Shown here piece after piece: positions 9,702 through 61,281 of a stretch of 64,000 bases of DNA (the first letter of the stretch is position 1; each line of letters opens with the position of its first letter). The notes below the pieces were generated by a model that saw only the letters and a program-made list of their open reading frames with translations, was not told where the DNA came from and searched no databases. Origin of the DNA: an uncultured Candidatus Saccharibacteria bacterium (GTDB lineage Bacteria > Patescibacteriota > Minisyncoccia > Phycocordibacterales > JAKFXT01); the NCBI GenBank assembly GCA_964385825.1, contig CAYLPX010000004.1:4986-68985 (forward strand), given 5' to 3'. The position numbers and the translations under genes are program-made.

Positions 9702-9747
9702 ACTGCCGTGCAGGATTCCTTGAAATCCACCGCCAACAAAAATTACT

Positions 9748-12705: not shown

Positions 12706-12760
12706 ACCGGCAACCTCTCGCGTGACAGGCGAGTGCTCTAACCAGTTGAGCTACAACCGC
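12687..12760 (-). tRNA. tRNA-Asp (anticodon GUC)
   Basis: GCGGTTG TA GCTC AACTGGTT AGAGC A CTCGC CTGTCAC GCGAG AGGTT GCCGG TTCAAGT CCGGT CAGCCGC G. CCA is not encoded. Confidence 0.85.
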
Positions 12761-34667: not shown

Positions 34668-35200
34668 GTTTTTTGGCTTTTATTGATAGAAAACTTATTT
34701 GCTAAATCCTTGCTAGCGGCGCTTATATCGAAGTTTTGGGCGCGCCGCATTGTTTGTAAAACAAAATCTCTGGAAGTATTCTCATTGGTACTCTCTGTAA
34801 TAGAATGCTCGCCTGTGCAAGCCAGTTTGTTAGATTCGACAGAATGATTTGCTCGACCCGTTTCAAGGCATGCTAGAAGCCGGATGATTATGATTTTGAA
34901 GTGGCGTTTTTGTGGGATCCCTCGTTTCTCAACCACGAGCACACCCAACTCTTTCCATCGTCTTATTGCTCGATCTTGTTCGCTTCGGGTAAGGGAGGTT
35001 TCTTCCTGTATTTCGGCGATTGTTTTGTAAATCCAGTCCGGTTTACGTCCTTTGCCCCACCAGTAGAGAAGTTGCGACAGAAAGAGTCCTGCTCCTGCAC
35101 TTTTCGCAATCCGCGCTAATGCAGGATTGAAAGCAATCGGTCTTTCCGAGATATGTTCGATCAAAGCGGAGTTATAGTTTTTGCTTACTTTTTTGGACAT
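34664..35200 (-). CDS. winged-helix DNA-binding protein (DnaD/replisome-organizer-like); possible element replication or regulatory factor
   Basis: KTIAEIQEETSLTRSEQDRAIRRWKELGVLVVEKRG wHTH. 178 aa. Confidence 0.35.
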   Translation of the reverse strand: MSKKVSKNYNSALIEHISERPIAFNPALARIAKSAGAGLFLSQLLYWWGKGRKPDWIYKTIAEIQEETSLTRSEQDRAIRRWKELGVLVVEKRGIPQKRHFKIIIIRLLACLETGRANHSVESNKLACTGEHSITESTNENTSRDFVLQTMRRAQNFDISAASKDLANKFSINKSQKT

Positions 35201-35388
35201 GGTTTCTTTTGCTCTTTGAGCATCTCGAGATATCGGGGGAGCATACGCTTCGGCATCGGCTGCATCACGATCCGAGCCAAGTTCAAAAACCGCTGCGCCT
35301 GTTCCGACGCTTCATCGAAGGTGAGATCCGTGCCGAACTCGGCCTTGTAGATCTCGCGGTATTTTTCGATGGCTTGAGGTGAGAGCAT
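35185..35388 (-). CDS. small hypothetical protein, homolog of island 1 gene 9501..9701
   Basis: See 9501..9701. The start is placed at the internal Met (MLSPQAIEKY). Confidence 0.45.
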   Translation of the reverse strand: MLSPQAIEKYREIYKAEFGTDLTFDEASEQAQRFLNLARIVMQPMPKRMLPRYLEMLKEQKKPCPKK

Positions 35389-35525
35389 GTAAAACGAAAT
35401 CTGCACACTCACGGGGGTGAAATGTGCAGATTCCGTCCCCCGTGAACTGATTGATTCCGTACACTGATTGTCTGAAAAGTCTGGGGTGCTTGGTATCGCT
35501 AGTTTGTAGAAACACAAAATAAAAA

Positions 35526-46994: not shown

Positions 46995-47067
46995 GCGGGT
47001 ATAGCTCAGTTGGTAGAGCAGGCGTCTTATACACGCCCGGTCCTTGGTTCGAGTCCAAGTACCCGCA
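46995..47067 (+). tRNA. tRNA with UAU anticodon (predicted tRNA-Ile, rare isoacceptor)
   Basis: GCGGGTA TA GCTC AGTTGGT AGAGC A GGCGT CTTATAC ACGCC CGGTC CTTGG TTCGAGT CCAAG TACCCGC A. The anticodon loop is CU-UAU-AC. CCA not encoded. Confidence 0.65.
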
Positions 47068-47214
47068 CAAAGGATTTATCATCCATATACATAGACACCG
47101 AAGTCTCTAGTCAAATCCAGTACATACGATGCATAATTCTGTATTACTACTAATTAAATAGACCTCAATCAAACCTCGAGTAATAAAGTAGAGTTATTTT
47201 TAAATTTAAAAAAT

Positions 47215-48714
47215 ATGAAAAAAAGTCTTTTTTTTGAAGAAAATTTAGCAAAAGGAGGGGTTAAAAAATTTATTGAAACAGAAAAAAACGGTTCTTATAC
47301 CTACCTTGAAACAGAAATTTACACCAATCAAATTGCAAATTTTCTAAAAAACGAGGGTTTAAAAAAAGGTGATCGAATTTGTATCATAGCAACAAAATCT
47401 CCAGCAACAATCTTTTACTATCTAGCAATACTAAAAATAGGGGGGGTGTACACTCCTATTAGTCCAGATAGTAATATAGGAGAAATAGATTACATACTTG
47501 AAGATACTGAAGCAAGTGCTCTCATCTTTCCCTCTTCAGCAAAATCTTTTATTTTAAATAATTCCCGAAATACAAATACTGTAAAATATTTAGAACAAAT
47601 TAACCCCGGTTTAAAATTAGCTTTTTCATTTAGTCCCTTCTTTAAAAATAAAACTCCTACCCCCTCGGATACAGCACTTATTCTCTACACTTCAGGTACC
47701 ACAGGCAAACCTAAGGGGGTAATCCTTGATTATGCGCAAATAACCAGATTAGAATCATTAATAACAGTCTGGAAAGTTAGAGAGACTGATAAGATATTTT
47801 TAGCGCTTCAACTCAGCCATATTCATGGGATAATGCTAATCAATATTAGTCTTCATGCTAGATGTGGTCTTTTTCTTTATCCCAACCCTTTTTCCCAAGA
47901 TACGATAAAAATATTACAAAAAGTTTCGATCGTTTCCTTAAGCCCAACGCATTACAAAATTTTAAATGAATTATTTAAACAAACACCGATTAGAAATCCT
48001 ATCCCCCGGCTTTTTATTAATGGATCAAATAGCCTCCCCAACAAAACAGCTGAGGATTTCAAGATATTTACCAAAAAAAATATTGTTAATAGATATGGCT
48101 CGACAGAGCTAGGAATTCATACAACAAACATTCCTGATAAAGAAGTACTAGGAAGTTGTGGTAAACCATTATCGGATCTTTTAATGCGCATCGTGGACGA
48201 TAATGGAAAAATACTTCCTCCAGGAGTAATCGGAAACATTGAAGTAAAAAGTCCTCATATGTTTTCAGGATACTGGAGAAACAAAGAAAAAACCTCACAG
48301 TCAATAACACCTGATGGTTTTTTTAAAACTGGAGACATTGGCAAATTTGATAAAAATAAAAATTTATTTATTACAAGCCGAGCTATAGAAGTGATTACCG
48401 GGGAATTCGGCTTTAAAATTTACCCTAAAGAAATTGAATCCTATATTGAAGAGATAGAAGGACTTGAAGAAATCGCAGTAATTGGGATTCCTTCAAAAGA
48501 CAATTACGAAAAAATCTCTCTTTTTGTTTCAATCAAAAAAGGTTTTGAAAAAGTACTTCCTCCAGAAGTAATTAAAAATCTTATTGCGAAAAAGGTCTCT
48601 CGTAAAAAAATCCCTTCATGTGTACACATCCTAGATTCACTACCAAAAAATAAAGCTGGTAAAATTACAAAGGAAGAATTGAAAAAAATCCACTTAACTT
48701 TTCCGCTTCATTAA
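47215..48714 (+). CDS. AMP-dependent synthetase/ligase (acyl-/aryl-CoA ligase or adenylating enzyme)
   Basis: LYTSGTTGKPKGV AMP-binding motif, plus TGD motif FKTGDIG. 499 aa. Very AT-rich codon usage. Confidence 0.75.
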   Translation: MKKSLFFEENLAKGGVKKFIETEKNGSYTYLETEIYTNQIANFLKNEGLKKGDRICIIATKSPATIFYYLAILKIGGVYTPISPDSNIGEIDYILEDTEASALIFPSSAKSFILNNSRNTNTVKYLEQINPGLKLAFSFSPFFKNKTPTPSDTALILYTSGTTGKPKGVILDYAQITRLESLITVWKVRETDKIFLALQLSHIHGIMLINISLHARCGLFLYPNPFSQDTIKILQKVSIVSLSPTHYKILNELFKQTPIRNPIPRLFINGSNSLPNKTAEDFKIFTKKNIVNRYGSTELGIHTTNIPDKEVLGSCGKPLSDLLMRIVDDNGKILPPGVIGNIEVKSPHMFSGYWRNKEKTSQSITPDGFFKTGDIGKFDKNKNLFITSRAIEVITGEFGFKIYPKEIESYIEEIEGLEEIAVIGIPSKDNYEKISLFVSIKKGFEKVLPPEVIKNLIAKKVSRKKIPSCVHILDSLPKNKAGKITKEELKKIHLTFPLH

Positions 48715-48765
48715 ATAACTTAAAATTAAATTTCAAAATTTCTTGCAAATTTTTCAATAAAAAAA

Positions 48766-48787
48766 GAGGGGGATTGCTCCCCCTCAC
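48766..48787. terminator. rho-independent terminator for the GC-rich minus-strand gene
   Basis: GAGGGGG-ATTGC-TCCCCCTC stem with a run of 7 A on the plus strand (a T-run on the minus strand), immediately downstream of the 48801..49403 stop. Confidence 0.7.
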
Positions 48788-48800
48788 TTGTCGCGCCCGG

Positions 48801-49403
48801 CTATTCACCAGCCGAAGCGCTTTTCATCGGCGGCCAGACGTTGGTCTCGACGACTTCGTAGGTCTGGACCGGCCCGAACCGCGACACGCACTTGCCGGGC
48901 CGCTTCAGTTCCGGCACATACCAGCAGGTAACCGGGCCGCGGTCGTAGCCGTTGTCGAAGTTCACGACGACCTTCATGGCCGAGAACTTGCCGATGGACA
49001 GCACGACTTCCTCGACGCCCACAACCTCGGTTGCAACCTTGAGCTTCCCGGAAGCAGACCCGCGGTAGAACATCACCTCGTCGTTCTTCCACTTGTTCCC
49101 CGCAACGAGGGGGAACCGGAAGTACGGAATGTACGGGGAATACTGGGTGAAACTTTGCCCAGCCGCCCCCTTCATTTCCGCAGTGTTGGAAACGGGGTTC
49201 CATTCATTCGTGAGCACGTGACGATACCCGCCGTAGAGGATGTCGATCTTGGAGTCGTTGACCCCAGTCACCACGACCTCCTTGAAGGAATCGCCGACCT
49301 TGATTTTCCAGGCGTCACCCACCTGCACTTCAGGCCGGTTGAAATCTGCGGCCATTGCCACCCCCCCGACAAGGAGGAGCGCCAAAACAAAGCTCTTGAA
49401 CAT
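48801..49403 (-). CDS. secreted protein of unknown function encoded by a strongly GC-rich (~60%+) insert in an AT-rich region
   Basis: Signal peptide MFKSFVLALLLVGGVAMAADF. GC3-rich codons (GCC, GGC, CCG). The flanks return abruptly to AT-rich sequence. Confidence 0.6.
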   Translation of the reverse strand: MFKSFVLALLLVGGVAMAADFNRPEVQVGDAWKIKVGDSFKEVVVTGVNDSKIDILYGGYRHVLTNEWNPVSNTAEMKGAAGQSFTQYSPYIPYFRFPLVAGNKWKNDEVMFYRGSASGKLKVATEVVGVEEVVLSIGKFSAMKVVVNFDNGYDRGPVTCWYVPELKRPGKCVSRFGPVQTYEVVETNVWPPMKSASAGE

Positions 49404-49536
49404 GTCAATCTCCCTCCCCACTTAAGGGGTTAATACTACATTGAACTCCAACTTAAAGTATACATATATTTATAAAAAAAGCAAGTCCATGTGAATAAAG
49501 ATTGCGAAGCTTTACACCCTAAGATATCATGGATGC

Positions 49537-50436
49537 ATGTTAGTAAAATTCATAGCACACGCTGGAATAGCAATAGAAGAAGACGGATTTTTACTCCTCA
49601 TTGACCCCTGGTTTTTTGATAGTACCCCAGAAAATCCAATAATAGAAAGCATAGGTGGGGGATTTAAAACAATTGATTTTCAAATCCCAAAAACAACTGA
49701 AGATATTACCCTTTACAAACCTGATGCCATCCTTGTATCCCATTTCCATCCCCACCATTCCCCTGTACGTGATATTACGGAACTATTTACAAATACGTTG
49801 GATAGTAACAAGGAAATCCTAATCGGGTACCCTACGCCCAACGATGAAATGGAGCGTATGCTCATGAAAAATATTCCCTCTTCGGTGAAGAAAAAGGCTG
49901 TACGCCCCAATGATGAGATCCTCATCGGACCGTTTAAAATTACTGCCAAAAAACACACTGTCCCCTTTCATACTAGTTGGTACATCACCTCAAAAACTGG
50001 TTCCGTGTTGCATATCGCTGATGGGAGAATAAATAAAGATATTATGGACCGACGAATAGATGATACGTGGATAGAATTACAAGGCTTAAAACCATCGATT
50101 CTCTTTATAAGTAGCGGAGGTCATAGTCAACTTCAAAAAAATAAGGAGGGGGAACGAGTGGTAGTAGAAGCTGGTATTTTTACCGCAGTTGAAGCAGCGA
50201 AAGTAACAAGATTAATTAACCCTACCGCTGTAGCCCTAATAGGAATGTACAATCACAGTATTTGGAAAAATAGAGTTGAATACATACGACAGTCCTCTCA
50301 GGTTGAGGAGGAGTTTTTGTGGGCACTAACTTATCTTGACCCAAACATTAAGAAGCTTTTTATCAACCCGGGTTTTAGTATTGGATTATCAGAAAAGGAT
50401 CTAGAAGGAAAATGCAATTATTTCTCAAAAAACTAA
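49537..50436 (+). CDS. MBL-fold-like metallo-hydrolase (tentative)
   Basis: ILVSHFHPHHS resembles the HxHxDH metal-binding motif. 299 aa. Confidence 0.35.
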   Translation: MLVKFIAHAGIAIEEDGFLLLIDPWFFDSTPENPIIESIGGGFKTIDFQIPKTTEDITLYKPDAILVSHFHPHHSPVRDITELFTNTLDSNKEILIGYPTPNDEMERMLMKNIPSSVKKKAVRPNDEILIGPFKITAKKHTVPFHTSWYITSKTGSVLHIADGRINKDIMDRRIDDTWIELQGLKPSILFISSGGHSQLQKNKEGERVVVEAGIFTAVEAAKVTRLINPTAVALIGMYNHSIWKNRVEYIRQSSQVEEEFLWALTYLDPNIKKLFINPGFSIGLSEKDLEGKCNYFSKN

Positions 50437-50963
50437 AACTTAAGCTAATTTTATTTTTCTTAAAAGTACACCAAACCGACAAAATTGCACATAGAAAGAG
50501 CAGTTTTTTAGAGCATTTACTAGGTACTTATAACCTACTGGTAAGCTGGGAACTGGAGGAAAGTATTTGTCTTGCTGGTCTATTTCATAGTATTTATGGT
50601 ACAAAATTTTTCACTCACGCAACAGTAAGACAAGAGTTCCGTTTTTTGATTAAAATCTTGATCGGTGGAAAAGCTGAAAAACTTGCCTACCTTTTTTCTG
50701 TTTCAGAAAGACCTAGTGGATTTTTAAAAGGACTCGAAACTGGCTTTTTAGAAAATAGAATAACCCATAAACTTGAACAATTTCCACCTGAAATTATCCA
50801 TAATTTAGTTGCTATTGAGTGTGCGAACCTAATCGACCAAGGAGGTGGAGTTGAATTCCTAAAACAGATTATTCAAAAATTTTCAGCATTAAATAGCGGC
50901 TTCCTTAATGATAAAATTTTTAACACAATTAATGCTTTTTTAAACCAAAAACTAACTAATTGA
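50412..50963 (+). CDS. hypothetical protein (183 aa)
   Basis: His-rich helical protein. No firm assignment. Confidence 0.35.
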   Translation: MQLFLKKLKLKLILFFLKVHQTDKIAHRKSSFLEHLLGTYNLLVSWELEESICLAGLFHSIYGTKFFTHATVRQEFRFLIKILIGGKAEKLAYLFSVSERPSGFLKGLETGFLENRITHKLEQFPPEIIHNLVAIECANLIDQGGGVEFLKQIIQKFSALNSGFLNDKIFNTINAFLNQKLTN

Positions 50964-52532
50964 GTATCGATCCTTAGATAATATACCGTTCTTATCAAAA
51001 AATTTCTTTAATGCATCAACTAACTTCCAGTACTGAAGATTGCCCTCATTTCTTAGTCCAACATTCCTGATATCCCCCCTATTTAAGTAAAAATTCTTGA
51101 CTTCCCCCTCTTTTACTAGTGCCTCATAACACTCAAAGGCTTTCTTAGCTTCAGCATCATTCTTCTTATTAAAAGCGAAAAAGATCGTTGCTTTAAAATA
51201 GGTACTACGATAGCCTGTAAACTGAAAATTAAACGGAAATCCGTACTGTAAACAAATTTTCTCCATACTTTGTATCGCCTCAAAAGCTATTTCTGTATTT
51301 GCCGAAAAGGTACATGAGAAAAAAAGAAAACCGAGATTTTCATCTATATCAGGATTTAGATTTGACCGAAGAAAATTATTCCAAGAATCTGAAGAGTAAT
51401 CGTCTCTCACCCTAGATGAAAACACTACTTTGTTAGTCTCTCGTATGGGGAACCCCATGGCAAGCCTAAGTGACCCTAATAAAAAAATATATTTTTCTTT
51501 CAAAATAAATGGGAGCGGAAATCTAGCAGAACTCAGAATATTCAAATTTTTTTCTGAAAAGAAAAATAATGGTAACTCACTAATACTTTTAAATTTACTT
51601 TTTAGAACCTTCTCTGCCGCCCCCACTAGGACTGAATTAGCTGAAATAACTCCGACCACAAGCCATTTCCCCTTAGCGTCAGCAGTATAGAGGTTCGAAA
51701 AATAGTCCTTTTTAGCTTTTACTCGTTGCCTTCTACTCACTAATCTATCATCCGAGAAGATTTTTAAATAAACCAAAATATGAGGTAACTCCTCTAGGGA
51801 TTCCCTAATTTTAAAAATAACTTTCTTCAAATCTTTTCGTGAATCAAATTCGAAAGAAAATATTCTGCTTTTTTCAGTTTTTTTACTAAGCAATAATGTA
51901 GCATTTAAAACTATCCCAAAGTTACTCTGCATAAAGAGTCCGTCGAAATAGGGACCCAGTTTCCACTTAGAAGGAAGATTTGGTGAGTTACTTTCAAAAA
52001 TTTCTCCATTACCCAAAACAACGCGAAGGGAACAAACCGACTCAAAATGCTCCATATCAACGGATGATCCCATCCCATACTCAAGAAAATTACCTATAAT
52101 GCTACACGTCCCATGTGCCCCCGTTGTTGGAGTACTAAAGTTAAGATCCCTTTTTGCTAAAAAATCTGCGAGTAAATTTTGCGTCACCCCTGGCCCAACT
52201 GAAATCAGTCCCGTATCTTCATCAAGGATTTTAATGTCGAGCAACTGTGATAAATCCAAAATCACAGAATTTTGGCTTGTTGGCACGGCACTGCCATACC
52301 CCCAATTTTTTCCTGTACTAATAGTATAAAGAGAAATATGGTAACGATTCGCGATAGCTACAATAGATACAACCTGCTCTTCGCTCTTTGGTCTTAATGC
52401 TAAAAGAATTTCTTTTTTGATCCCCAAAGTTGAATTGCCATATTTATTTTGAGCAGTTACAGAGTCCAAAACACCCTCATTACCCAAAAGAAGCTTAAAC
52501 TCTGAAAGAGCCTGGTTGAAGCCCTCTTTCAT
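50952..52532 (-). CDS. FAD-binding PCMH-type oxidoreductase (FAD_binding_4 family)
   Basis: N-terminal FAD-binding domain pattern (...PKSEEQVVSIVAIANRYHISLYTISTGKNWGYGSA...). 526 aa. Confidence 0.55.
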   Translation of the reverse strand: MKEGFNQALSEFKLLLGNEGVLDSVTAQNKYGNSTLGIKKEILLALRPKSEEQVVSIVAIANRYHISLYTISTGKNWGYGSAVPTSQNSVILDLSQLLDIKILDEDTGLISVGPGVTQNLLADFLAKRDLNFSTPTTGAHGTCSIIGNFLEYGMGSSVDMEHFESVCSLRVVLGNGEIFESNSPNLPSKWKLGPYFDGLFMQSNFGIVLNATLLLSKKTEKSRIFSFEFDSRKDLKKVIFKIRESLEELPHILVYLKIFSDDRLVSRRQRVKAKKDYFSNLYTADAKGKWLVVGVISANSVLVGAAEKVLKSKFKSISELPLFFFSEKNLNILSSARFPLPFILKEKYIFLLGSLRLAMGFPIRETNKVVFSSRVRDDYSSDSWNNFLRSNLNPDIDENLGFLFFSCTFSANTEIAFEAIQSMEKICLQYGFPFNFQFTGYRSTYFKATIFFAFNKKNDAEAKKAFECYEALVKEGEVKNFYLNRGDIRNVGLRNEGNLQYWKLVDALKKFFDKNGILSKDRYSIS

Positions 52533-52541
52533 ACAAATAAC

Positions 52542-53624
52542 CTAAAAATTTTGTCCAATGGTCTGAAGATATTTCTTGAAATCAGGTGAAACTTTAGCCA
52601 AAATAAATACTTGCTGCTTTACAGGATAAGTATCAGGTTGCTTAAGTAAAGATTGGTAATAATTTTTAAGTGTATCGGAACTAATAGCCTCCTCAGTACT
52701 ATAGGGCTTTAGTATTTGAACAATATCATTTACCCTATCCTCTCCAAAATTTTTCTTAACGAAAGTAGCGTAGTAAAACCTAATTCGATACAAATTTTTA
52801 ACACCATACACACTTACAGCATATTTTTCCCCCTCTGATAAGGCCAATTTATAAGCATCCTCCTGCTCGGCGAGAGTATAGTTCTTTAATATCTTGGCTA
52901 CATTCCCGATACCAATGGCCCTATACATATACATCTCAATCATTCGAGAATTTTCATATATTTTATCCTTAAGCAATCCATTACCATCAACTATAGTTTT
53001 GTTGAGCTCATTTGCAAAGGCAATTTTATCAATACTTTTAGGAAGAGAATCACTTATGAAAAGATGGCTTTGAGTATAAACAATTGAAAACTTAGCGAGA
53101 GCATTCGGATAGAGCTCATCAGAATATTTCCAAAGTCCGATAGCAAATACTCGGGAATTAAAAGGCTCGCCTAATTTCGGAAAGTATGTTGAGTATGGTG
53201 CTTCATTAAAATTCTCGCGAATAAATTCTTCACTACTAAAAGCCAGTAAATCTGCCAAATCATCTAGCACAATAGCTCTAGCAAGAGGTGGATTTTTAAG
53301 ATCACCTATAAGGTCCTTATAAATTTTAACTGCTTCAGCTCTATCGGAACCTTCATTGCGAGCAAAAAGCTGGTAAGCAATCATGGCCTTAGCCCGAATG
53401 TTATCCATTAGGCTCAGTTTATCTACGAGCTTTTCATAGGTAGCAATCGTCTTTGAACGATCACCTGAATTATAAGCATCGAGCGCCTCTTTTCTAGCTT
53501 GTGTAATTTCAGCCTTTTTTGAATCTGTACCAGATTTGAAAAAAGTCAATTTATCTCTAAACATAAAAGTCCCCAGTATTAAAATCAATACAAAAATTAA
53601 ACCGAAAGTTTTTCTTAAATTCAT
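52542..53624 (-). CDS. hypothetical membrane-anchored helical-repeat protein
   Basis: N-terminal TM. TPR-like helical content. Confidence 0.35.
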   Translation of the reverse strand: MNLRKTFGLIFVLILILGTFMFRDKLTFFKSGTDSKKAEITQARKEALDAYNSGDRSKTIATYEKLVDKLSLMDNIRAKAMIAYQLFARNEGSDRAEAVKIYKDLIGDLKNPPLARAIVLDDLADLLAFSSEEFIRENFNEAPYSTYFPKLGEPFNSRVFAIGLWKYSDELYPNALAKFSIVYTQSHLFISDSLPKSIDKIAFANELNKTIVDGNGLLKDKIYENSRMIEMYMYRAIGIGNVAKILKNYTLAEQEDAYKLALSEGEKYAVSVYGVKNLYRIRFYYATFVKKNFGEDRVNDIVQILKPYSTEEAISSDTLKNYYQSLLKQPDTYPVKQQVFILAKVSPDFKKYLQTIGQNF

Positions 53625-53664
53625 AAATCAATTAAAATACTAAGGAACTAATTATCGCAAAATA

Positions 53665-53913
53665 CTAGCAGTCACTCCCACCTGGGTCTGGGTCTGGACA
53701 AGATGACCCACACGGGTCAGGGAATGGTGATGGGCCGCCAGGTACATCTGCAAATGCAGTTGGAACGGTCAGCGCATCTCTAATACTGAGACCCTTTTTT
53801 TGACTCTTAAGATTATCTGACTGGTTTTCCTCACCCTTTTGAAAGAAATTGATAAAAACCATAGCTAAGGTTAGGCCAAAAATATAGGTGAATTTAAATA
53901 TTTTTTTAAACAT
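53665..53913 (-). CDS. candidate RiPP precursor peptide (Cys/Ser/Gly/Pro/Asp-rich C-terminal core)
   Basis: 82 aa with a hydrophobic N-terminus and a C-terminal ...PGGPSPFPDPCGSSCPDPDPGGSDC. It lies directly downstream of ycaO on the same strand. Confidence 0.5.
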   Translation of the reverse strand: MFKKIFKFTYIFGLTLAMVFINFFQKGEENQSDNLKSQKKGLSIRDALTVPTAFADVPGGPSPFPDPCGSSCPDPDPGGSDC

Positions 53914-54013
53914 ATTCTTTACTTATTGAACTCATTTTACACCTCGACTCTTGTAAAAACAAGACCACTAATGTTGATAACAAAAAAACGGGTGACTTAA
54001 ATACTGTGCTAAT

Positions 54014-55585
54014 TTATGGGAATGGGTGTGGTAGCTTATTTATTAAATTTTCACACCCTGATGCGTCCTGACCCAACTCTTCCCACAGTCGTGGATGAGT
54101 TAACGGAGCATGTACTTCCTTTAAATACAGAGGGATGAGCGTAGGGATTATAACCCTAACAACATGATACCCCAACGCATCCAAAATTTTATTTTTTACT
54201 TCATATACATATATATCACTCTCACGATTCTGAGATCTCAGAATATATAAAACATGCTCTAACTCGCTCTTTGAATCCCCAAAAGACCTTTCTTCACCTA
54301 CTAGATCGACCTCTTTTCCTGAGATAAAAAAATTAATGTTTGAAGAAAAAGTTCCAGGCTCAGCCCAAAGTCTTTGTCTATTTAAATGATCAACTGAAAT
54401 GTCAAAAAATGGTTTGTAGTCCTGGGGTAGTTGAAACTTATTTTTGAAACCAACAGTTCGGTACCATTTTCTAACAGAAAGTGCTTCTACAACTGCCTTA
54501 TGAATCGCCTCCTGCTTATTCCAGCCACATCCTCCACCCATTGCAACTGCGACTCCATTAAGCGAAGTATCTAAAATTACAACAATAAAAGAGGGTACTT
54601 GCAGGTTAGTTGTCACATCCATAATCTCTACTTGAAGGCCGTAGCGTTTGCAATTTTCCAAAATCCTTTTCAAATTTTGGGCCGTTAGTGATTTGTGACT
54701 TATCCTAGGTGGAGTCTTAGTTTGCATCCAATACCAAAGAAATGAATCCCGCTGTATAACCTCATAAGCACCACTTAAAACTGCTTCCTCATAAGTAAAA
54801 TGCCCACTTGCTCCGTTTGTATTTGACTCTCGTATGAGCGGCTCCATACCCTCTCTTTTATAAGTCCAGAAAACTAATTGAGCAGGAATTAAAATCTTCT
54901 TCTTTGTCGCCAGAGAGTATCCTTCCACCCAACCAAAAGGACTATGTTCGTCGGAGACAAAATGTTTAAATTCTTTTTTCTGTATGTCAGAAAAGTTGTT
55001 AAGTATTTTGGGATTTAAAACATTTTTACCCTGCAGATTTAATTCCTTAAATGATCCATGTATTAATTTATTTCTTTTATATACTAGTAAAAAATACCTC
55101 TCCAAAAACTCACCTAATGCCTTTGATACTGAAATATCTGGATCATCAAAATGAGAGGAACATAAAACAGGTAAGTCCTTAGCGTACCCATCAGTAACTA
55201 CCTTTAATTGGAAAAGATTAAAGCCATAAAGTCTTGGCTCATCATTTAAATTTTCTCGACAAAAAAAGTGTGGGTCGCTAATTAACTGATTACTATGGAG
55301 ATAATTTAATACGGGCTGCCAATAGTAAAGGTTAGGGTAATGCGGATTATACGCAAATGAATACATGTTTCCTAATCTAAAAAAACTTAAGAAATACTCT
55401 TTAAATATCTTTACCATTTTTTCAGAAAAAGTAAGTGGTTGTTTAAACCTTCCTCGTCGTCCATTAAGTGACTCATTGAGTAGATGATCCGCCCTAAAAA
55501 AACCAATTTCATTGGTTAAAAAAAACATTTGACCATTTCTATCTTCTTTTTTTAATTCTGAACTCATATCTTTACCCAACAACAA
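54014..55585 (-). CDS. ycaO: YcaO-domain protein (ATP-dependent cyclodehydratase/amide-activating enzyme) with a ~160-aa N-terminal extension
   Basis: SKALGEFLERYF (ATP-binding E-x-x-E-R) and ESNTNGASGHFTYEEAVLSGAYEVIQRDSF, matching the conserved YcaO core. Confidence 0.75.
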   Translation of the reverse strand: MLLGKDMSSELKKEDRNGQMFFLTNEIGFFRADHLLNESLNGRRGRFKQPLTFSEKMVKIFKEYFLSFFRLGNMYSFAYNPHYPNLYYWQPVLNYLHSNQLISDPHFFCRENLNDEPRLYGFNLFQLKVVTDGYAKDLPVLCSSHFDDPDISVSKALGEFLERYFLLVYKRNKLIHGSFKELNLQGKNVLNPKILNNFSDIQKKEFKHFVSDEHSPFGWVEGYSLATKKKILIPAQLVFWTYKREGMEPLIRESNTNGASGHFTYEEAVLSGAYEVIQRDSFLWYWMQTKTPPRISHKSLTAQNLKRILENCKRYGLQVEIMDVTTNLQVPSFIVVILDTSLNGVAVAMGGGCGWNKQEAIHKAVVEALSVRKWYRTVGFKNKFQLPQDYKPFFDISVDHLNRQRLWAEPGTFSSNINFFISGKEVDLVGEERSFGDSKSELEHVLYILRSQNRESDIYVYEVKNKILDALGYHVVRVIIPTLIPLYLKEVHAPLTHPRLWEELGQDASGCENLINKLPHPFP

Positions 55586-56309
55586 GTGTATAGACTAAAG
55601 ACTCGCCAACACCGTCTATATCAAGTATTTCATCTTCTACCATGACATCCTCAGTTGCTGCCAGAGCGCAGCAGTTGAGCCCCAGTGCCTTTGAATTTAA
55701 ATAAAAACCCTGGCCGACATGCCCCGCCTCAATCAACACCATACGGTAGCCTCGTTCGCCATATTTTAATTGATTTCGTTCAAAAGTTGCTGTGATAAAA
55801 AAAATTAAGGAACCTCTTTCAATCCAAGAAACTCCTAAATATTTTGAAATTTCCGCCTTCTCAAAATCCCGCTCCCATAGAACTGTTGCTCTATGATTTT
55901 CTACATCATAATGATAAAGTCCTGGTGCTATATCGGTATCAATAGTCTCCGTTACTAAAAAATAGACTTCTAGAGGATAACGTGCCCCCCCAGAAGGGTA
56001 TGCTCGGTGATTCATCCCATTTACAAATGAAGTAATACCTGCACTATACTCCAAAAGGATGGAAAGTTGGTTTAATGTTATTTTTTTGCCATTAATTATC
56101 CTACTTGTAACCCTCTCTCTTATTGCATCAAACATATTAAAGGCGGGGTTTATTTTTAACAAATTTACCTGTCTAAACCTTGGATACTTTTTATAATAGA
56201 CAGTTCTCCATTCTTCAGGCCAATCCCGAAAATCTACGCTAATAGGGGGGTGTCCCCTACCCTTATCTTTTGAAATCTTGTGGAAAAAAGTAGAAAAAAG
56301 TTGATTCAT
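55572..56309 (-). CDS. SagB/ThcOx-type FMN-dependent dehydrogenase (nitroreductase superfamily)
   Basis: RAYPSGGARYPLEVY signature. 14-nt overlap with ycaO. Confidence 0.7.
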   Translation of the reverse strand: MNQLFSTFFHKISKDKGRGHPPISVDFRDWPEEWRTVYYKKYPRFRQVNLLKINPAFNMFDAIRERVTSRIINGKKITLNQLSILLEYSAGITSFVNGMNHRAYPSGGARYPLEVYFLVTETIDTDIAPGLYHYDVENHRATVLWERDFEKAEISKYLGVSWIERGSLIFFITATFERNQLKYGERGYRMVLIEAGHVGQGFYLNSKALGLNCCALAATEDVMVEDEILDIDGVGESLVYTLVVG

Positions 56310-56338
56310 TTTTAGTACAACATCTAATCAAAGGTTGG

Positions 56339-57124
56339 TTACCAAGTTGGATTAACATGAAACCACTGGACTATAGTTACTCTTGGTTTTTTATTACCCT
56401 GGAAAGCATGGAATGACTTAGGGCTAATGTGGAAACCAAAAAGTCTATTCTGTTTTGGATCTACAACTTCACATGGCTCAGAATTTTTTGAAAGGTATAT
56501 ACCTGTCCCTCCTCCATCCCCTTCCTGCCAATCATCACCAAAAAGATACATAATAATGGCAATAACCCTCCGAGCACCAAAACTTGCGCCCATCTGATTA
56601 TTTTCTTCTTTTGTGCGAGTGACTATAGGAACTACAGAATTTGGGAGGCTGTCGCCCTTAAAAAAATACTTTACGGCATAATCATGATGCACAAATCCGG
56701 TTCTGTCTCCCGATGGGTGATAGTGTATTGCCAAATCAGTAGCAAAACCAGTTGATTGATTAAAAATCTTTGAAATAAATTGATTCCAAGTAACTGAAAA
56801 GAAGAAATTCAAAACTTGATGTTCATCAGCCCTCGGGACATACAGATAACCATCATATGCAAATTCTCCAGTAAGACTAAAGGGGTGTAGTCGTGAAAGA
56901 TCTGCCTGTTCACCAAAACCACGGTCAATAACAGATTTCACATATGCCTCTATATCGCTATAAAAACTGGGGGTAAAAAAATTATCAACTACTATATGGG
57001 GAAACGGTTCTTGGTTAGGGACTACTATTTGTGGAGTAACATACTCCTCAAGGCGGATACTCTCTTTAAGTTCTGTGCTTTTTTTCTCAAGATTATTTTT
57101 GATTTTATCTAGAAAGGTAATCAT
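56339..57124 (-). CDS. putative 2OG-Fe(II) oxygenase-like tailoring enzyme (paralog A)
   Basis: PFPHIVVDNFF N-terminal motif and His/Asp clusters (HYHPSGD...HHD). Paralog of 58407..59276. Confidence 0.45.
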   Translation of the reverse strand: MITFLDKIKNNLEKKSTELKESIRLEEYVTPQIVVPNQEPFPHIVVDNFFTPSFYSDIEAYVKSVIDRGFGEQADLSRLHPFSLTGEFAYDGYLYVPRADEHQVLNFFFSVTWNQFISKIFNQSTGFATDLAIHYHPSGDRTGFVHHDYAVKYFFKGDSLPNSVVPIVTRTKEENNQMGASFGARRVIAIIMYLFGDDWQEGDGGGTGIYLSKNSEPCEVVDPKQNRLFGFHISPKSFHAFQGNKKPRVTIVQWFHVNPTW

Positions 57125-57168
57125 GTTGCTATAGTACCAAGACCAATACCATTCGCAAGTTTTGAAAC

Positions 57169-57873
57169 TCAGTAGCTTTTCTCTATTGAAAAATTAGAGT
57201 CACTTTCATCAACCATACTCCAAAAAGTGTCAACGGTTTTTTGTGCTGTTTTTTCATCCCTAATAGAACCAGGGGCCAGCACCTTGGTGGGAATTTTATA
57301 CGTATCAAAAAAGAAGTCGTGTGCATATGCGGCTAGGATATGAAGTGCAGCCTTAGCGGCACTATAACTAGCCAACTCTTTTCGTGCTGTTTTTCCAGTA
57401 CCAGCGCCACTACCAATAAATATAATCTTTTTATTATTTTTGGCATTCTCCTCACTATTATTGAAGAAAATTGGAGCGCACTGTTTTGAGAATTCGATGG
57501 GTACATATACATCAAGCAGCATTTCATACAAAAAAGATTCTTTCTTTAGATCTTGAATAGAGGCAAAACCGTTGTAATATGCTCCCAGCACCAAAACATC
57601 CACCCGACCTAAAACCTTACCCAAATAACTTACAGTTTTCCCAAGATCTTTACCTATATCGAAAAAAATATTAACTACACCCTCCCCGAGCAAGGGGGTG
57701 CGCCTTGAAATATTTACCAAAAGTACATCATTGGGTTTATGCTTTAAAAAAAGCCTGCCTAAAGCTCCACCAGCCCCGGTCATAAGAACAACCTTCCTGT
57801 ATCCATCAATATCAATTGATTTCAGGGGATTCTTTGTTGAAAAAGATGGCCATTTCATGCTTTTACTATACAC
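57169..57873 (-). CDS. short-chain dehydrogenase/reductase (SDR)
   Basis: TGAGGALG Rossmann motif. YSAAKAAL catalytic YxxxK. Confidence 0.7.
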   Translation of the reverse strand: MYSKSMKWPSFSTKNPLKSIDIDGYRKVVLMTGAGGALGRLFLKHKPNDVLLVNISRRTPLLGEGVVNIFFDIGKDLGKTVSYLGKVLGRVDVLVLGAYYNGFASIQDLKKESFLYEMLLDVYVPIEFSKQCAPIFFNNSEENAKNNKKIIFIGSGAGTGKTARKELASYSAAKAALHILAAYAHDFFFDTYKIPTKVLAPGSIRDEKTAQKTVDTFWSMVDESDSNFSIEKSY

Positions 57874-57920
57874 CTTTCACCCTCTCGCAAGTAATAAAAA
57901 TGATGTTATACTAATTTCAT

Positions 57921-58403
57921 ATGGAAAATACTATTGTACAAAACACCCCAAAAAAGTGGTTAATTATAGGCAAAAAAATAGCTCCTTTTTTCTTTACAGC
58001 GCTTATCACAGCTTTGGTAATTTATCTTACCCCGCTTAAACACATAGCGCTCATAGAACCAACTATCAGAGACATTGATGCGCAAAAAATCTACACCGAA
58101 ATGACGGCTAATCCCGACAAATATATTTTTATTGACGTCCGACCTGTTGCAGCTTATACCAAACTCCACGCACAAGGTGCCATGAATATTGAGCTATACA
58201 AAATGTATTATGAAAGAAAGAATCTTCCTAAGCATGGCAAAAAGATAGTACTTATCTGTAGTGGAGGCGTTGCTTCTGGCGTAGCGTTTAGTTATCTAGA
58301 ACACTATGGTTTTTTTAATATTTACCGAGTTGAGGGAGGAATAGAAAATTGGGTTAAAGCAGGACTACCTGTTGTAAGTGCTGCACAAAATCAGAGTTCA
58401 TAG
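57921..58403 (+). CDS. membrane-anchored rhodanese-domain sulfurtransferase
   Basis: FIDVRP...IVLICSGGVASG, with the active-site Cys in a CSGG loop. 160 aa. Confidence 0.65.
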   Translation: MENTIVQNTPKKWLIIGKKIAPFFFTALITALVIYLTPLKHIALIEPTIRDIDAQKIYTEMTANPDKYIFIDVRPVAAYTKLHAQGAMNIELYKMYYERKNLPKHGKKIVLICSGGVASGVAFSYLEHYGFFNIYRVEGGIENWVKAGLPVVSAAQNQSS

Positions 58404-58406
58404 CCC

Positions 58407-59276
58407 CTACCGATCGTTAAAAGTATATCCAATATTTTTTGAAGGGTCTCCGTAGAACCACTGTGTTACAGTTGAGCGTGGGGTGTTGTTTTCTTCAACA
58501 GCATGATACCCCCCTAAAGATACTTCGAAAGCAAGGATTCTATTTCGTAGCGGCTCTATCTTCTTAATAGGAGTTGATTTTTGCATTTTATCATAAAGTT
58601 CTTCTCCATTCCCTCGCGCCACCTCTTTGGTAGGACTAGAAATTATTTTTTTTATATCGCCAATTGGTGCCTTGTATAACAAAGTTCTTCCAGCATCTTC
58701 TTCTTTCCAATCATCATTAAAAATGTACATTACCAGAGCGATAATTCTAACCCCTCCCACTAATGAAATATCTTGGTTGTTAGTCTCAAGCAACTTTTTC
58801 TTTTTATAAATAACACCATTTGATAGACGGCTGCTCTCTAAAAAAGAGTCGTGAATAAAATCTGTATGAGCATGACTAGTTTTATCTCCCACCTTATGAT
58901 GATGAAGTGCAAATAAGGTCAGTAAATTTGTTTGTTTTTTAAAAATTTCGGCAAAATAATTATTCCACCCAACCGAATAAAAAAGGTCTAAAATTGAATT
59001 TTCACTAGGAGCCGGTGAATAGCCTTCTACGGTAAACTTCCCCTTGAAGCCTTCTAGGTTTGTAAATGAACCATTCTCATATTTCTGTTTATGGAATTTC
59101 TCTAATTGTGCTAGAAAATCCTCCTTAAAAAAATTGTCCACGACTATGTGCGGAAATGGCTCGTTAATTACCTCAATTGGCTGCTTGTTGATATATTCAA
59201 ATATATCGAAATCCTCAGCAAGAAGAGCTGCTTTCCTTTGCAACTTATATTTGAGTTCTGAAAAATCAGGAAACAT
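58407..59276 (-). CDS. putative 2OG-Fe(II) oxygenase-like tailoring enzyme (paralog B)
   Basis: EPFPHIVVDNFF, HHHKVGD...HTD. Aligns with 56339..57124. Confidence 0.45.
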   Translation of the reverse strand: MFPDFSELKYKLQRKAALLAEDFDIFEYINKQPIEVINEPFPHIVVDNFFKEDFLAQLEKFHKQKYENGSFTNLEGFKGKFTVEGYSPAPSENSILDLFYSVGWNNYFAEIFKKQTNLLTLFALHHHKVGDKTSHAHTDFIHDSFLESSRLSNGVIYKKKKLLETNNQDISLVGGVRIIALVMYIFNDDWKEEDAGRTLLYKAPIGDIKKIISSPTKEVARGNGEELYDKMQKSTPIKKIEPLRNRILAFEVSLGGYHAVEENNTPRSTVTQWFYGDPSKNIGYTFNDR

Positions 59277-59319
59277 GTCTCCAGTATATCAAACTCCAAC
59301 CGCCTTTAACTAAGACGGG

Positions 59320-60012
59320 TTAGACAACTATTTCTCCATCAGAAAGGCGGACAATACGATCGGCGAGGTGTCCGTATTCTTCTTCGTGGGTCACCATAAT
59401 AATGGTCTGGCCGTTTTTATTTAAATCAAGAAGAAGATCAAGTACAAGTTTGCCAGAATAAGTATCCAAGTTAGCTGTTGGCTCATCAGCAAAAATTATT
59501 TCGGGGGCATGTGCTACAGCGCGGGCTACCGCTGCACGCTGCTGCTCACCTCCTGAAAGGCCCGAGGGTAAATTATTCTGACGTGACTCAAGTCCAATAC
59601 GGGAAAGTGCTTGGAGGGCCTTCATACGCGCTACAGGAGTCTTATAACCCTGCATGAGTAGTGGAACCATGATGTTTTCAATGGCAGTCAATTCTGGGAT
59701 AAGCGCATAGTCCTGAAACACGTATCCAAGCTTATTGAGACGGAATGTTGTTTTCTCCTCTTCGGTAAGTGCACTTACTTCATGTTCTTCTATTTTAATA
59801 ACCCCTGAAGTAGGTTTATCGAGCAAACTCATCTGGTAGAGAAAGGTACTTTTTCCAGCCCCCGAGCGTCCCATGATGGCCACAAACTCTCCGCGATAGC
59901 AGGTGAAATTAAGTCCGCGTAGTACTCGTGTCTCTACCCCGCCCTTATCAGTATAGGTTTTAGTGAGCCCTGAAACTTCAATTATTTTTTTTGTTGTTGG
60001 AGTTGGAATCAT
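59320..60012 (-). CDS. ABC transporter ATP-binding protein (MacB/LolD-type)
   Basis: Walker [10 protein letters not shown], signature [14 protein letters not shown], Walker B IIFADEP. Confidence 0.9.
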
Positions 60013-60018
60013 ATATGT

Positions 60019-61281
60019 TTATCGGCCCAAAATGGCATTAAGGGTGTTACGGCGAACAATGAGTTTAGCGGGAATATATCCAGCGATAACCGTAGTCACC
60101 ACAAGAATTGCCACCCTGATCAAAGTCTCATCAAGTGGGGCGACCAAAATACCATCACTAAATGGGAAGTTGATAGGGTGCGCATCAAGTGCTGGTTTTA
60201 TAAGCCCATACACCACCACAAGTCCAAGCCCCGATCCTACCACTGCGTAAAAAATAGACTGAAGCACATAAGATATTTCAATAGCAGCTTCACTAATACC
60301 AATACCCTTGAGGATTCCAATATACCGTCTTCGAGTAATGGCGTTAATGAAAATCACAATAAAGAGCGTAACAGCTGCCACCACAAGACCAATACTGGAA
60401 ATCGCATTACCAAGGAGGGCGAATGTATTCTTAATATCTATCAGAAACTTCGGCTGAGCCTCTATCCACGTCTTAATATCTGCCCCTTTTGCAAAATCAT
60501 TATTAATAAGTACACCCTTTACATAATCAGCCTTATTAATATCGTTGAGGAATACCGCGATCTCAGACCCATCGAAATTATGTGCATTGGAAAGTGCACG
60601 AAGTTCGTGGTCGGTCATGAAGATTTTGAAAGCAATATCATCAACCTTAGCCTTCAGAATACCTTTCACGGTATATTCTTTAGTCACATTCCCAACTGTG
60701 AGCCTAACCTTACTTCCAATACTCACTTTTTTTAGCAGTGTAAAAACTTGATCAGGTACCACGCTATACTGCTCCAAAAAGTTATATCCAATAATAATTT
60801 GATCGCTATCCTTAGGATCTAAGTACTCCCCTTCAATGATGTGTGATGAGAGATTAGTTGCCTCATCTTCCGCCACAGGATCAATACCTGCTATATTTGC
60901 CCCGAGTCTATTAGGCGCCTCATCAAAATGTCGCTCACGATAGTTAGCTTCAACAGTTCCGCCTGAAATTAAGCGAACTGAATAATGCTTAACTTCGGGC
61001 AAACTCTGTAGTACCGCTGAGATCTCACTTGTATGTTCTATAGTTTCTTTGTTCTTAAGATTCTTCACATACACATGCCCTGAGTACTGTTCACGGTAGG
61101 CTGATACTGATCCTTCGATTAGCCCCACAAGCACCCCCGAAACCACTACCAAGTTAAGGAAGGTCAATGTCATTACGAAAATAATAAGTAATGTAGTCCA
61201 AAGACTCGCACGACGTATCTGTCGAAGCGCTAAGAAAAATCCTACCTTAAATATTACCCCTCTATTTTTTAGTGTCTGCAT
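60019..61281 (-). CDS. ABC transporter permease (FtsX/MacB-like, 4 TM with a large periplasmic loop)
   Basis: 420 aa. N-terminal TM, ~220-aa periplasmic domain, 3 C-terminal TMs. Confidence 0.8.
   Translation of the reverse strand: MQTLKNRGVIFKVGFFLALRQIRRASLWTTLLIIFVMTLTFLNLVVVSGVLVGLIEGSVSAYREQYSGHVYVKNLKNKETIEHTSEISAVLQSLPEVKHYSVRLISGGTVEANYRERHFDEAPNRLGANIAGIDPVAEDEATNLSSHIIEGEYLDPKDSDQIIIGYNFLEQYSVVPDQVFTLLKKVSIGSKVRLTVGNVTKEYTVKGILKAKVDDIAFKIFMTDHELRALSNAHNFDGSEIAVFLNDINKADYVKGVLINNDFAKGADIKTWIEAQPKFLIDIKNTFALLGNAISSIGLVVAAVTLFIVIFINAITRRRYIGILKGIGISEAAIEISYVLQSIFYAVVGSGLGLVVVYGLIKPALDAHPINFPFSDGILVAPLDETLIRVAILVVTTVIAGYIPAKLIVRRNTLNAILGR

Follow-up and report, generated by a model that had tools for sequence, protein, structure and literature searches.

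The subject here is a 12-kb block of DNA in the genome of an uncultured Candidatus Saccharibacteria bacterium. The window analysed is a stretch of 64,000 nucleotides from contig CAYLPX010000004.1 (assembly GCA_964385825.1), and the block occupies positions 47,069-59,319 of this 64-kb window. It lies between a tRNA-Ile(UAU) gene and an operon for a MacB-type exporter. A first-pass annotation of the sequence had described an AT-rich, horizontally acquired biosynthetic island at this place. The block is indeed an insertion, and its genes belong to one biosynthetic gene cluster (BGC) of the linear azol(in)e-containing peptide or thiazole/oxazole-modified microcin (LAP/TOMM) type. Such peptides are among the ribosomally synthesised and post-translationally modified peptides (RiPPs). 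The borders and the core genes are:

46995-47068, plus strand: tRNA-Ile(UAU) (ARAGORN; Rfam 70.6 bits), marking the left edge of the island, which its 3' end faces
47069-47214, no strand: left junction, an AT-rich spacer that precedes the AMP-ligase gene
52542-53624, minus strand: membrane-anchored protein of 360 aa with tetratricopeptide repeats (TPR), recognised by its family profile; N-terminal hydrophobic helix
53665-53913, minus strand: precursor peptide of 82 aa, with a basic N-terminus and hydrophobic helix, linker, AFAD motif and core
54014-55585, minus strand: YcaO cyclodehydratase of 523 aa (PF02624, 5.5e-53)
55572-56309, minus strand: SagB-type dehydrogenase dependent on flavin mononucleotide (FMN), predicted to turn azolines into azoles (PF00881; TIGR03605 at 131 bits, cutoff 78)
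59277-59319, no strand: right junction, a 43-bp spacer ahead of the ABC ATPase stop
59320-62812, minus strand: MacB/DevA/DarD-type tripartite exporter (ABC ATPase, FtsX permease, HlyD adaptor), an ancestral neighbour outside the insertion

Base composition and borders

GC figures were computed for positions 47100-59300. GC content is 0.370 there and 0.430 in the remaining window. In a sliding profile of 500-bp windows, GC stands at 0.46-0.48 at 46-47 kb and drops from 0.48 to 0.33 between 46.5 and 47.0 kb, immediately past the tRNA. It then stays at 0.32-0.40 until 59.3 kb, apart from the region of one GC-rich gene. At 59.3 kb it rises from 0.39 to 0.45-0.47, and the rest to the right is at 0.43-0.47. 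The edges are sharp: tRNA-Ile(UAU) on the left, which ends at 47068 directly before the first base of the island, and the stop of the ABC ATPase gene on the right.

The genes show the same shift. Mean GC is 0.367 for 12 island genes and 0.428 for the 49 other genes of the window (Mann-Whitney p = 6e-6), and mean GC at third codon positions (GC3) is 0.301 versus 0.390 (p = 4e-5). The averages for the 12 genes exclude the GC-rich gene at 48801-49403. GC is not uniform along the window, and the description of the block as AT-rich holds overall, on the sliding profile as well as on GC3.

It does not hold throughout. A self-contained gene of GC 0.59 takes up 650 bp at 48.77-49.42 kb. The AT-richness is also moderate, and there is a second AT-rich stretch in the window, at 3.6-12.7 kb, with a comparable GC of 0.376.

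The locus in related genomes

Relatives were retrieved with a RecG probe, RecG being encoded directly upstream of the tRNA in the window. They are annotated as metagenome-assembled genomes (MAGs) of Candidatus Saccharibacteria or Patescibacteria, which places the window in a bacterium of the candidate phyla radiation (CPR). Comparison loci are given here by labels such as L003. This Patescibacteria MAG, whose RecG is 62% identical, has an empty site: a spacer of 472 bp between RecG and the ABC gene, where the window has 12 kb. Gene order and gene orientations are as in the window (cupredoxin, RecG, tRNA-Ile(UAU), ABC, FtsX, HlyD, IspA, FtsH), with identities of 71% for ABC, 81% for FtsX, 49% for HlyD and 83% for FtsH. 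On the left, about 10 nt 3' of the window tRNA still look like the flank of a tRNA fragment in L003, after which there is no similarity until it resumes within the ABC gene.

Four more relatives (L004, L005, L007, L010) have RecG and tRNA-Ile followed by IspA or FtsH, without the block. The five block-free relatives span 51-62% RecG identity. Conserved presence of the block in all related genomes, which would have spoken against an island, is not what the synteny comparison found. The empty site, the four other block-free relatives and the composition edges support the earlier reading of a horizontally acquired island.

The closest relative, L006 (RecG 85% identical), is a contig of 4.8 kb without a tRNA after RecG. 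Right after RecG it carries cargo of its own: a fusion with an adenylylsulfate (APS) kinase and a sulfotransferase, with a GC of 0.36 against 0.44 for RecG. This sulfotransferase and the one ending a related cluster, L001, share 47% identity (E = 3e-52). The site is variable, and the 12 kb of the window is an insertion relative to every informative relative.

The RecG of L006 (835-3471) is itself unusual in length, at 878 aa against 719 aa in the window. About 160 aa are inserted between window residues 436 and 441, and the added stretch could be either a domain or a mobile insertion.

The exporter genes at 59320-62812 have normal GC and are also found at the empty site of L003. The ATPase is similar to LolD and to the ATPases of bacteriocin and darobactin export (NCBIfam, all below cutoff).

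Could the block, or the GC-rich insert within it, be an assembly or binning chimera? GC does change abruptly within 1 kb, from 0.30 up to 0.59 and down again. However, at least 8 independently assembled contigs (ENA, JGI, Logan) contain this sequence together with both outer junctions and the GC-rich gene, and a chimera is thereby ruled out. The GC-rich gene is contained in all of the independent assemblies. Contigs assembled from one ENA sample, from four JGI samples and from a Logan run reproduce both outer junctions and the interior at 99.98-100% identity, the right junction is seen in four other assemblies, and a slightly diverged strain matches the block at 99.3%. In addition, the diverged locus L016 has the same arrangement of AMP ligase, GC-rich open reading frame (ORF) and metallo-beta-lactamase (MBL) gene.

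Probable recombination traces at tRNA-Ile(UAU)

In the window, tRNA-Ile(UAU) and RecG share a strand. In L003, L004, L005, L007 and L010 the tRNA is on the strand opposite RecG. This means that the window tRNA, or the tRNA together with the island, is inverted relative to all five relatives.

The spacer of L003 (L003:3160-3515) holds more than one tRNA. The full tRNA-Ile(UAU), at L003:3229-3302, is flanked by the 3' half and the 5' half of a second one. The 3' half matches the window tRNA and the start of its 3' flank at 95% over 39 nt, and the 5' half is identical to the window tRNA over 25 nt. Both halves bear the acceptor-stem sequence of the window tRNA. The arrangement looks like a tRNA gene split by an insert of about 290 bp that carries a replacement tRNA.

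A metagenomic contig, L031, has a tRNA-Ile(UAU) that is 100% identical to that of the window and abuts a distantly related BGC on the 3' side of the tRNA. A degenerate copy of the 3' half of the tRNA lies between the two. In both the contig and the window, the genes are ordered TPR, precursor, YcaO, SagB and point the same way with respect to the tRNA. Going by these alignments, the fragments in L003 and L031 fit recurrent recombination at tRNA-Ile(UAU), which would make it a hotspot. A different tRNA, tRNA-Arg(GCG), adjoins the cluster in L023, L049 and L073, and most loci of the family have no neighbouring tRNA.

Three other origins or roles were considered and rejected. The tRNA is not a helper for AUA codons of the island: it is kept in the five island-free relatives, and AUA use in the island is not unusual. 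A phage origin was dropped after megablast gave no match of the 12 kb among 50,697 phage records, and a plasmid origin because YcaOs from plasmids are at most 29% identical. Rfam matched nothing in the block except the tRNA, so the GC-rich stretch is not a known structured RNA; in L031 there was no known RNA beyond the tRNA either.

The predicted azole-forming core

Public gene callers begin the YcaO gene at 55567, 6 codons later than the start used here, which gives 517 aa. The best NCBIfam family is TIGR03604, the SagD-type TOMM cyclodehydratase, at 199.4 bits. Across the family, the ExxER and QRD motifs vary little or not at all. The protein ends in ...KLPHPFP, where P519, H520, F522 and P523 are invariant among 23 family members and P521 is conserved in at least 90%. 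It also has a conserved N-terminal extension of its own, of about 150 aa.

An AlphaFold2 model, built from an alignment of 23 sequences, has a predicted local distance difference test score (pLDDT) of 82. The top Foldseek matches of this predicted fold are LynD, MusD, TruD, the Methanocaldococcus jannaschii YcaO (MjYcaO) and McbD, with E values from about 1e-21 to 4e-13 for LynD, TruD, MusD and McbD.

The SagB and YcaO genes overlap by 14 nt and are translationally coupled. SagB stands beside YcaO in 56 of 84 loci of the family. Relatives of this YcaO are many but distant: 44 word-sharing ones in the protein database and 194 confirmed in metagenome contigs, none more than 39% identical and the nearest outside the own population at 38-39%. 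Many come from groundwater and sediment, and relatives of the cluster as a whole are widespread among CPR-rich metagenomes. Two are named, as Ca. Kaiserbacteria and Ca. Niyogibacteria.

YcaO enzymes can do more than one kind of chemistry. The one found here might mainly install thioamides or other backbone changes, with the rhodanese of the island giving the sulfur, and the product would then be thioamitide-like rather than a LAP. The rhodanese is the best-conserved accessory protein, at 48-53% identity in L001, L027, L031 and L072, and the island has no E1-like partner. The second-best NCBIfam match of YcaO is the YcaO of McrA-glycine thioamidation, and the best PDB sequence match is the thioamidating YcaO of M. 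jannaschii. The two YcaOs in L001 and L031 also allow two chemistries. Yet the thioamidation family scores 91 bits, far below the 199 bits of the SagD family, and no TfuA was found among the island proteins (Pfam, NCBIfam). SagB is above its cutoff and coupled to YcaO, which implies azoline substrates. Finally, the C-terminus is of the PxPxP kind, which Dunbar et al. are said to have described in 2014 as characteristic of azoline-forming YcaOs. On balance thioamide chemistry as the main activity is unlikely.

A second YcaO, plus a protein of about 620-630 aa encoded between SagB and YcaO, marks out L001 and L031 as a richer subtype. L001 additionally has a thioredoxin-like gene and a sulfotransferase. 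In L006, the sulfotransferase and APS kinase next to RecG may mark the edge of a cluster of this two-YcaO subtype.

The precursor peptide and its TPR partner

The 82-aa ORF between YcaO and the TPR gene reads MFKKIFKFTYIFGLTLAMVFINFF...TVPTAFAD, followed by the core VPGGPSPFPDPCGSSCPDPDPGGSDC. This 27-aa tail has 3 Cys and 4 Ser and is rich in Pro and Asp.

Comparable ORFs are found in about 28 loci. They share a layout: a basic N-terminus with a hydrophobic helix, a linker, and the motif A-x-A-D/E at 39-56 residues from the start, usually followed by V/A and then P. The tails after the motif are 19-51 residues long and hypervariable, with 30% Gly, 18% Ser and 8% Cys; Cys occurs in 23 of 26. 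Some resemble microcin B17. The motif was one of the search criteria for these ORFs, and a separate, non-circular test was therefore made. Among the 35 nearest small ORFs upstream of TPR-partner genes, 20 have A-x-A-D/E, compared with 3.4% of all small ORFs. Several more of the 35 bear V-x-A-D.

A-x-A is like the site of type I signal peptidase, yet it lies about 30 residues past the hydrophobic helix. Cleavage of the leader at A-x-A-D is hypothetical.

The TPR partner gave no Pfam or NCBIfam match as a single sequence. The profile of its family does match TPR repeat proteins and BamD in PDB, and TPR families in Pfam. An iterative search with hidden Markov models (HMMs) found it at 36 YcaO loci, and in each of them its gene follows the precursor ORF immediately downstream. 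In L064, L082 and L092, precursor and TPR gene are doubled as a two-gene unit within one cluster. This joint duplication suggests that each precursor has its own cognate TPR partner, and the TPR protein would be a membrane-anchored, peptide-binding scaffold. Together with the N-terminal extension of YcaO, it may stand in for the E1-like or RiPP recognition element (RRE) partner.

There is another option, in which the ORF is a small membrane protein and no precursor, YcaO and SagB act on some other substrate, and the island serves metabolism or the cell envelope. The N-terminus of the ORF is like a signal anchor, the TPR partner, the rhodanese and the product of the GC-rich ORF are all membrane or exported proteins, and no RiPP precursor family, nor any other family of Pfam or NCBIfam, matches the ORF. 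A hypervariable tail rich in Gly, Ser and Cys after a conserved motif is, however, the hallmark of a RiPP core, and the microcin B17-like tails belong to this picture. The position of the ORF between YcaO and TPR gene is fixed in dozens of loci, and precursor and partner duplicate together. A plain membrane protein is very unlikely.

Accessory genes

The remaining enzyme genes of the block are:

47215-48714, plus strand: acyl/aryl-AMP ligase of the ANL superfamily (PF00501, 6e-66, plus the AMP-binding C-terminal domain)
49537-50436, plus strand: protein of the MBL fold, a weak match (PF13483, 1.8e-4, below cutoff)
50412-50963, plus strand: DUF6817 protein (PF20680, 7e-22); recurs in L023 and L031
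50952-52532, minus strand: oxidase of the VAO/PCMH type linked to flavin adenine dinucleotide (FAD), FAD_binding_4 (PF01565, 1.4e-22); recurs in L023, L027 and L049
56339-57124, minus strand: 2-oxoglutarate (2OG)-Fe(II) oxygenase a, by its sequence a probable peptide hydroxylase (PF13661, PF13640)
57169-57873, minus strand: short-chain dehydrogenase/reductase (SDR; PF00106), in the same place after the 2OG oxygenase in L001
57921-58403, plus strand: membrane-anchored rhodanese (PF00581, 4.7e-14)
58407-59276, minus strand: 2OG-Fe(II) oxygenase b, a paralog of a (PF13640, PF13661)

Every enzyme class that the first-pass annotation had listed was recovered with Pfam and NCBIfam, the MBL-like protein only weakly. 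The best NCBIfam matches of the AMP ligase are malonyl- and fatty-acyl-CoA ligases, all below cutoff. Oxygenase a has a weak match to the YhhC family of RiPP-maturation oxygenases, and homologs 32% identical to it occur in L001 and L031.

Many of these genes recur at other loci of the family. The FAD oxidase, MBL and DUF6817 genes are shared with L023; the AMP ligase, FAD oxidase and rhodanese with L027; the rhodanese, 2OG oxygenase and SDR with L001; and the rhodanese, 2OG oxygenase, MBL and DUF6817 with L031. The MBL-like protein recurs with DUF6817 beside related YcaOs in L023 and L031, at 53-55% identity. In the L031 cluster the identities to the window are 36% for YcaO, 45% for SagB, 52% for the rhodanese and 55% for MBL. 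AMP-ligase homologs adjoin members of the GC-rich ORF family in L016, L097 and L098. Overall, accessory genes, including the GC-rich ORF, recur with the YcaO clade in L001, L023, L027, L031 and L098. Because they recur with the same YcaO clade, the 12 kb is one coherent cluster and not a mixture of enzymes. The word biosynthetic in the earlier description can be sharpened to a single LAP/TOMM-type RiPP cluster.

The GC-rich gene

Two further features lie between the AMP-ligase and MBL genes:

48766-48785, minus strand: hairpin terminator GAGGGGGAGCAATCCCCCTC followed by a T-run, which ends the GC-rich gene, between two convergent genes
48801-49403, minus strand: GC-rich gene for an exported protein of 200 aa (GC 0.59, GC3 0.80), with a predicted Sec signal cleaved between AMA and ADF; an accessory conserved across this BGC family

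The flanks of this gene have a GC of 0.30-0.34. It has its own ribosome binding site (RBS), GGAGGGAG, as well as its own terminator. A promoter scan gave no excess above shuffled expectation.

The best comparison is with L016, which is a diverged copy of the island (AMP ligase 74% identical, MBL 92%). The GC-rich gene is in the same place there, with 69% amino-acid identity and a GC3 of 0.79. The terminator sequence is almost identical. More distant homologs adjoin related YcaOs or AMP ligases in L021, L022, L031, L040 and L097-L099, for a family of about 20 proteins. Each homolog is the top or near-top gene of its locus in GC3. In L021, L022 and L031 their GC3 is 0.64-0.81 at an overall locus GC of 0.39-0.44. 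In L040 and L097-L099 it is 0.49-0.51 at a locus GC of 0.42-0.43, with neighbour genes in L097-L099 at 0.33-0.45.

Between window and L016, the synonymous divergence (dS) is 0.84 for the GC-rich gene and 0.80 for the adjacent AMP ligase. Given this likeness in dS, the GC-rich gene has co-descended with the island. Swaps between G and C make up 16 of the 43 synonymous third-position differences in the GC-rich gene and 0-1 in the flanking genes. From these comparisons the GC-richness is a maintained property and not the fading trace of a recent transfer. Recent horizontal transfer is insufficient as a cause: GC3 is 0.79-0.80 in both window and L016 despite a dS of 0.84.

The intergenic regions 48715-48800 and 49404-49536 are nearly identical between window and L016, while dS in the neighbouring coding sequence is 0.5-0.8. 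They contain the hairpin of the terminator and the RBS as well as a putative divergent promoter, and are either regulatory DNA under strong constraint or recombination flanks.

The product has no Pfam or NCBIfam match. Its AlphaFold2 model (pLDDT 77) is an all-beta half-barrel, for which Foldseek finds YmcC, BF2203 (DUF3108-like), LolA, RseB and LppX. Matches of this type are exported proteins that bind hydrophobic ligands. Based on the model, one may speculate that this protein and the neighbouring acyl-AMP ligase handle a lipidated product, or provide immunity.

Beyond the tRNA in L031, at L031:12400-13900, the background is AT-rich and is interrupted by two further GC-rich cassettes (GC 0.53-0.57) for small signal-peptide proteins, one of them rhodanese-like by eye and without a Pfam match. 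GC-rich cassettes for secreted proteins may be recurrent at such loci.

Origin of the block and proposed pathway

Taken together, it is likely that the block is a lineage-specific insertion between tRNA-Ile(UAU) and the MacB-type exporter operon, that its entire cargo is one LAP/TOMM-type RiPP BGC, and that recombination at the tRNA locus brought it in. The cluster was probably acquired horizontally.

A number of results weigh against this. As had been noted in the first pass, there is no integrase or flanking repeat. Pfam and NCBIfam gave no integrase, transposase or phage gene in 47.07-59.3 kb. The suggested check for a partial tRNA repeat near 59 kb found none, and no second copy of the tRNA that could serve as an att repeat at the far end occurs in the window with up to 3 mismatches. 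A search for flanking direct or inverted repeats gave only the paralogy of the 2OG oxygenases (D1, D2) and chance matches. In 14 of 18 long loci, drawn from many genomes, the BGC cores of the same family are AT-shifted compared with the DNA that flanks them. Because family BGCs are generally more AT-rich than their flanks, composition alone is a weak sign of recent transfer, and the AT-richness could stem from the properties of accessory genes and not from a foreign donor. L006 may carry a related cluster at the same site, in which case the locus could be old in the lineage and lost or replaced elsewhere. On the side of the chemistry, the SagD-type match of YcaO is below its cutoff of 219.25 bits, and no island protein matches an E1/ThiF, SagC, Ocin-ThiF-like or RRE family (Pfam, NCBIfam). 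By the positive-inside rule, moreover, a leader like a signal anchor would put the core outside the cell, away from the ATP-dependent enzyme.

Like tRNA-associated genomic islands, the block sits at the 3' end of a tRNA, deviates in composition, is absent from relatives and has accessory cargo. Unlike them, it lacks an integrase and att direct repeats, its tRNA is inverted, and tRNA fragments are seen only in other genomes (L003, L031). Of five island marks, three are present (tRNA adjacency, composition, absence in relatives) and two are missing (integrase, att repeats).

Several of these points would suit a block that is ancestral at the locus and has disappeared from the sampled relatives in separate loss events, with an AT-richness intrinsic to weakly expressed accessory or secondary-metabolism genes. 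The AT shift of family cores, the AT-rich cargo with its related sulfotransferase at the same place in L006, and the lack of mobility genes are all as such a history would have it. It would need several independent clean deletions, given five block-free relatives at 51-62% RecG identity and the perfect flank synteny of L003. The tRNA fragments in L003 and L031 indicate recombination at this very tRNA, the window tRNA is inverted compared with all relatives, and the nearest YcaO is only 38-39% identical. Ancestral presence followed by loss is thus improbable.

For acquisition by insertion, the most likely route would be recombination at the tRNA locus with DNA of another CPR-like bacterium. The tRNA and BGC may have arrived as a unit. 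Alternatively, integration at the 3' end of the tRNA may have been followed by inversion of the whole segment of tRNA and island.

The analysis shows the insertion, which genes are present, that they form one cluster, the precursor family, and the fold and motifs of YcaO. From the genes we infer a pathway of five steps; what the enzymes do chemically, how the TPR protein takes part, where the leader is cut, how the product leaves and what it targets are likewise inferred. First, the membrane-anchored TPR protein would recruit the adjacently encoded 82-aa precursor by way of its hydrophobic leader and A-x-A-D. YcaO, using ATP, would then cyclodehydrate Cys and Ser of the core VPGGPSPFPDPCGSSCPDPDPGGSDC to azolines, which the SagB flavoprotein would oxidise to azoles. 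In a fourth step, the two 2OG-Fe(II) oxygenases may hydroxylate the core, rich in Pro and Asp as it is, and the SDR, FAD oxidase, rhodanese and acyl-AMP ligase may also tailor the peptide. Last, the leader would be cut at or near A-x-A-D, before the D, and the product would exit via Sec or the neighbouring MacB-type pump.

A more far-reaching idea is tentative, and we would sooner doubt it than rely on it. The YcaO clade may be a distinct, membrane-tethered azole-peptide branch typical of CPR episymbionts. Its leader would be a signal anchor, the site before the D of A-x-A-D would replace a leader protease, and the TPR protein would replace E1 and RRE. The YmcC/LolA-like protein and the acyl-AMP ligase would handle a lipidated product. 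The module would travel with tRNA-Ile(UAU) or target it, and within AT-rich genomes selection would hold the exported-protein gene at a high GC (GC3 up to 0.8).

Genomes of CPR bacteria such as Saccharibacteria measure about 1 Mb, and these organisms are regarded as epibionts with almost no biosynthetic capacity. A peptide-modification pathway of 12 genes is more than 1% of such a genome, which suggests that the product matters for interaction with a host or competitor. There is now a defined cluster, with a precursor sequence, a minimal enzyme set (precursor, YcaO, SagB, TPR partner) and about 200 metagenomic relatives. A gene-flux hotspot at tRNA-Ile(UAU) is also documented, in a lineage whose mechanisms of horizontal transfer are poorly known.

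Relation to known systems

LAP clusters in CPR bacteria are not new. One in a Microgenomates MAG, with YcaO, nitroreductase, peptidase and an 84-aa precursor, has been described (Sharrar et al. 2020, mBio; PMC7298704). The same work reports 110 LAP clusters in 93 further CPR genomes, with a nitroreductase beside YcaO in 89. The hosts are Microgenomates, Parcubacteria, Peregrinibacteria and Katanobacteria, and Saccharibacteria are not named. Among the papers searchable here, no other one links Saccharibacteria with YcaO.

The cluster described here shares with them the CPR host, YcaO next to a nitroreductase/SagB, a precursor of about 84 aa beside YcaO and a core rich in Ser and Cys. Unlike their example it has no peptidase, and it adds the TPR partner, two 2OG oxygenases, SDR, rhodanese, FAD oxidase, AMP ligase, MBL/DUF6817 and the exported YmcC-like protein. 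Leader architecture and island context are absent from the description in PMC7298704. While the kind of cluster is already known in CPR, new are the Saccharibacteria host, the island context, the precursor family with its hydrophobic leader and A-x-A-D, the TPR partner, the missing E1-like partner, the accessory set and the GC-rich exported-protein gene.

McbBCD of microcin B17 and SagBCD of streptolysin S likewise combine YcaO with an FMN dehydrogenase of the SagB/McbC type. The predicted YcaO fold matches McbD, and several members of the precursor family have cores rich in Gly, Ser and Cys. The window differs in lacking the E1-like scaffold (McbB/SagC), in the N-terminal extension of about 150 aa on YcaO, in the TPR partner, in a leader with a helix like a membrane anchor, and in a Pro/Asp-rich core.

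The ribosome-targeting LAPs of the phazolicin/klebsazolicin type, cited in PMC7298704, are also linear peptides made with YcaO and a dehydrogenase, and the literature gives them a narrow-spectrum antibiotic logic. They differ in that their clusters encode a dedicated exporter and an E1-like partner, either fused or separate. Sequence relation to the window is limited to the YcaO and SagB domains, and the plasmid-borne Rhizobium YcaOs are at most 29% identical.

Other features of the window

At 35185-35517, on the minus strand, there is a 110-aa ORF with the second-highest GC3 of the window (0.62) and no convincing family match.

The second AT-rich stretch, at 3600-12760, encodes a cupredoxin, a DsbD-like/HMA protein, a heavy-metal P-type ATPase and two proteins of 426 and 395 aa. 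It also has, at 11040-12695, a large serine recombinase of the XisF/Ccr-like kind, which is the only recombinase of the window and lies 34 kb from the block. The 3' end of the recombinase gene overlaps a tRNA-Asp (12686-12760), beside two tRNA-Met genes. The whole of 3600-12760 looks like a classical integrative metal-resistance island.

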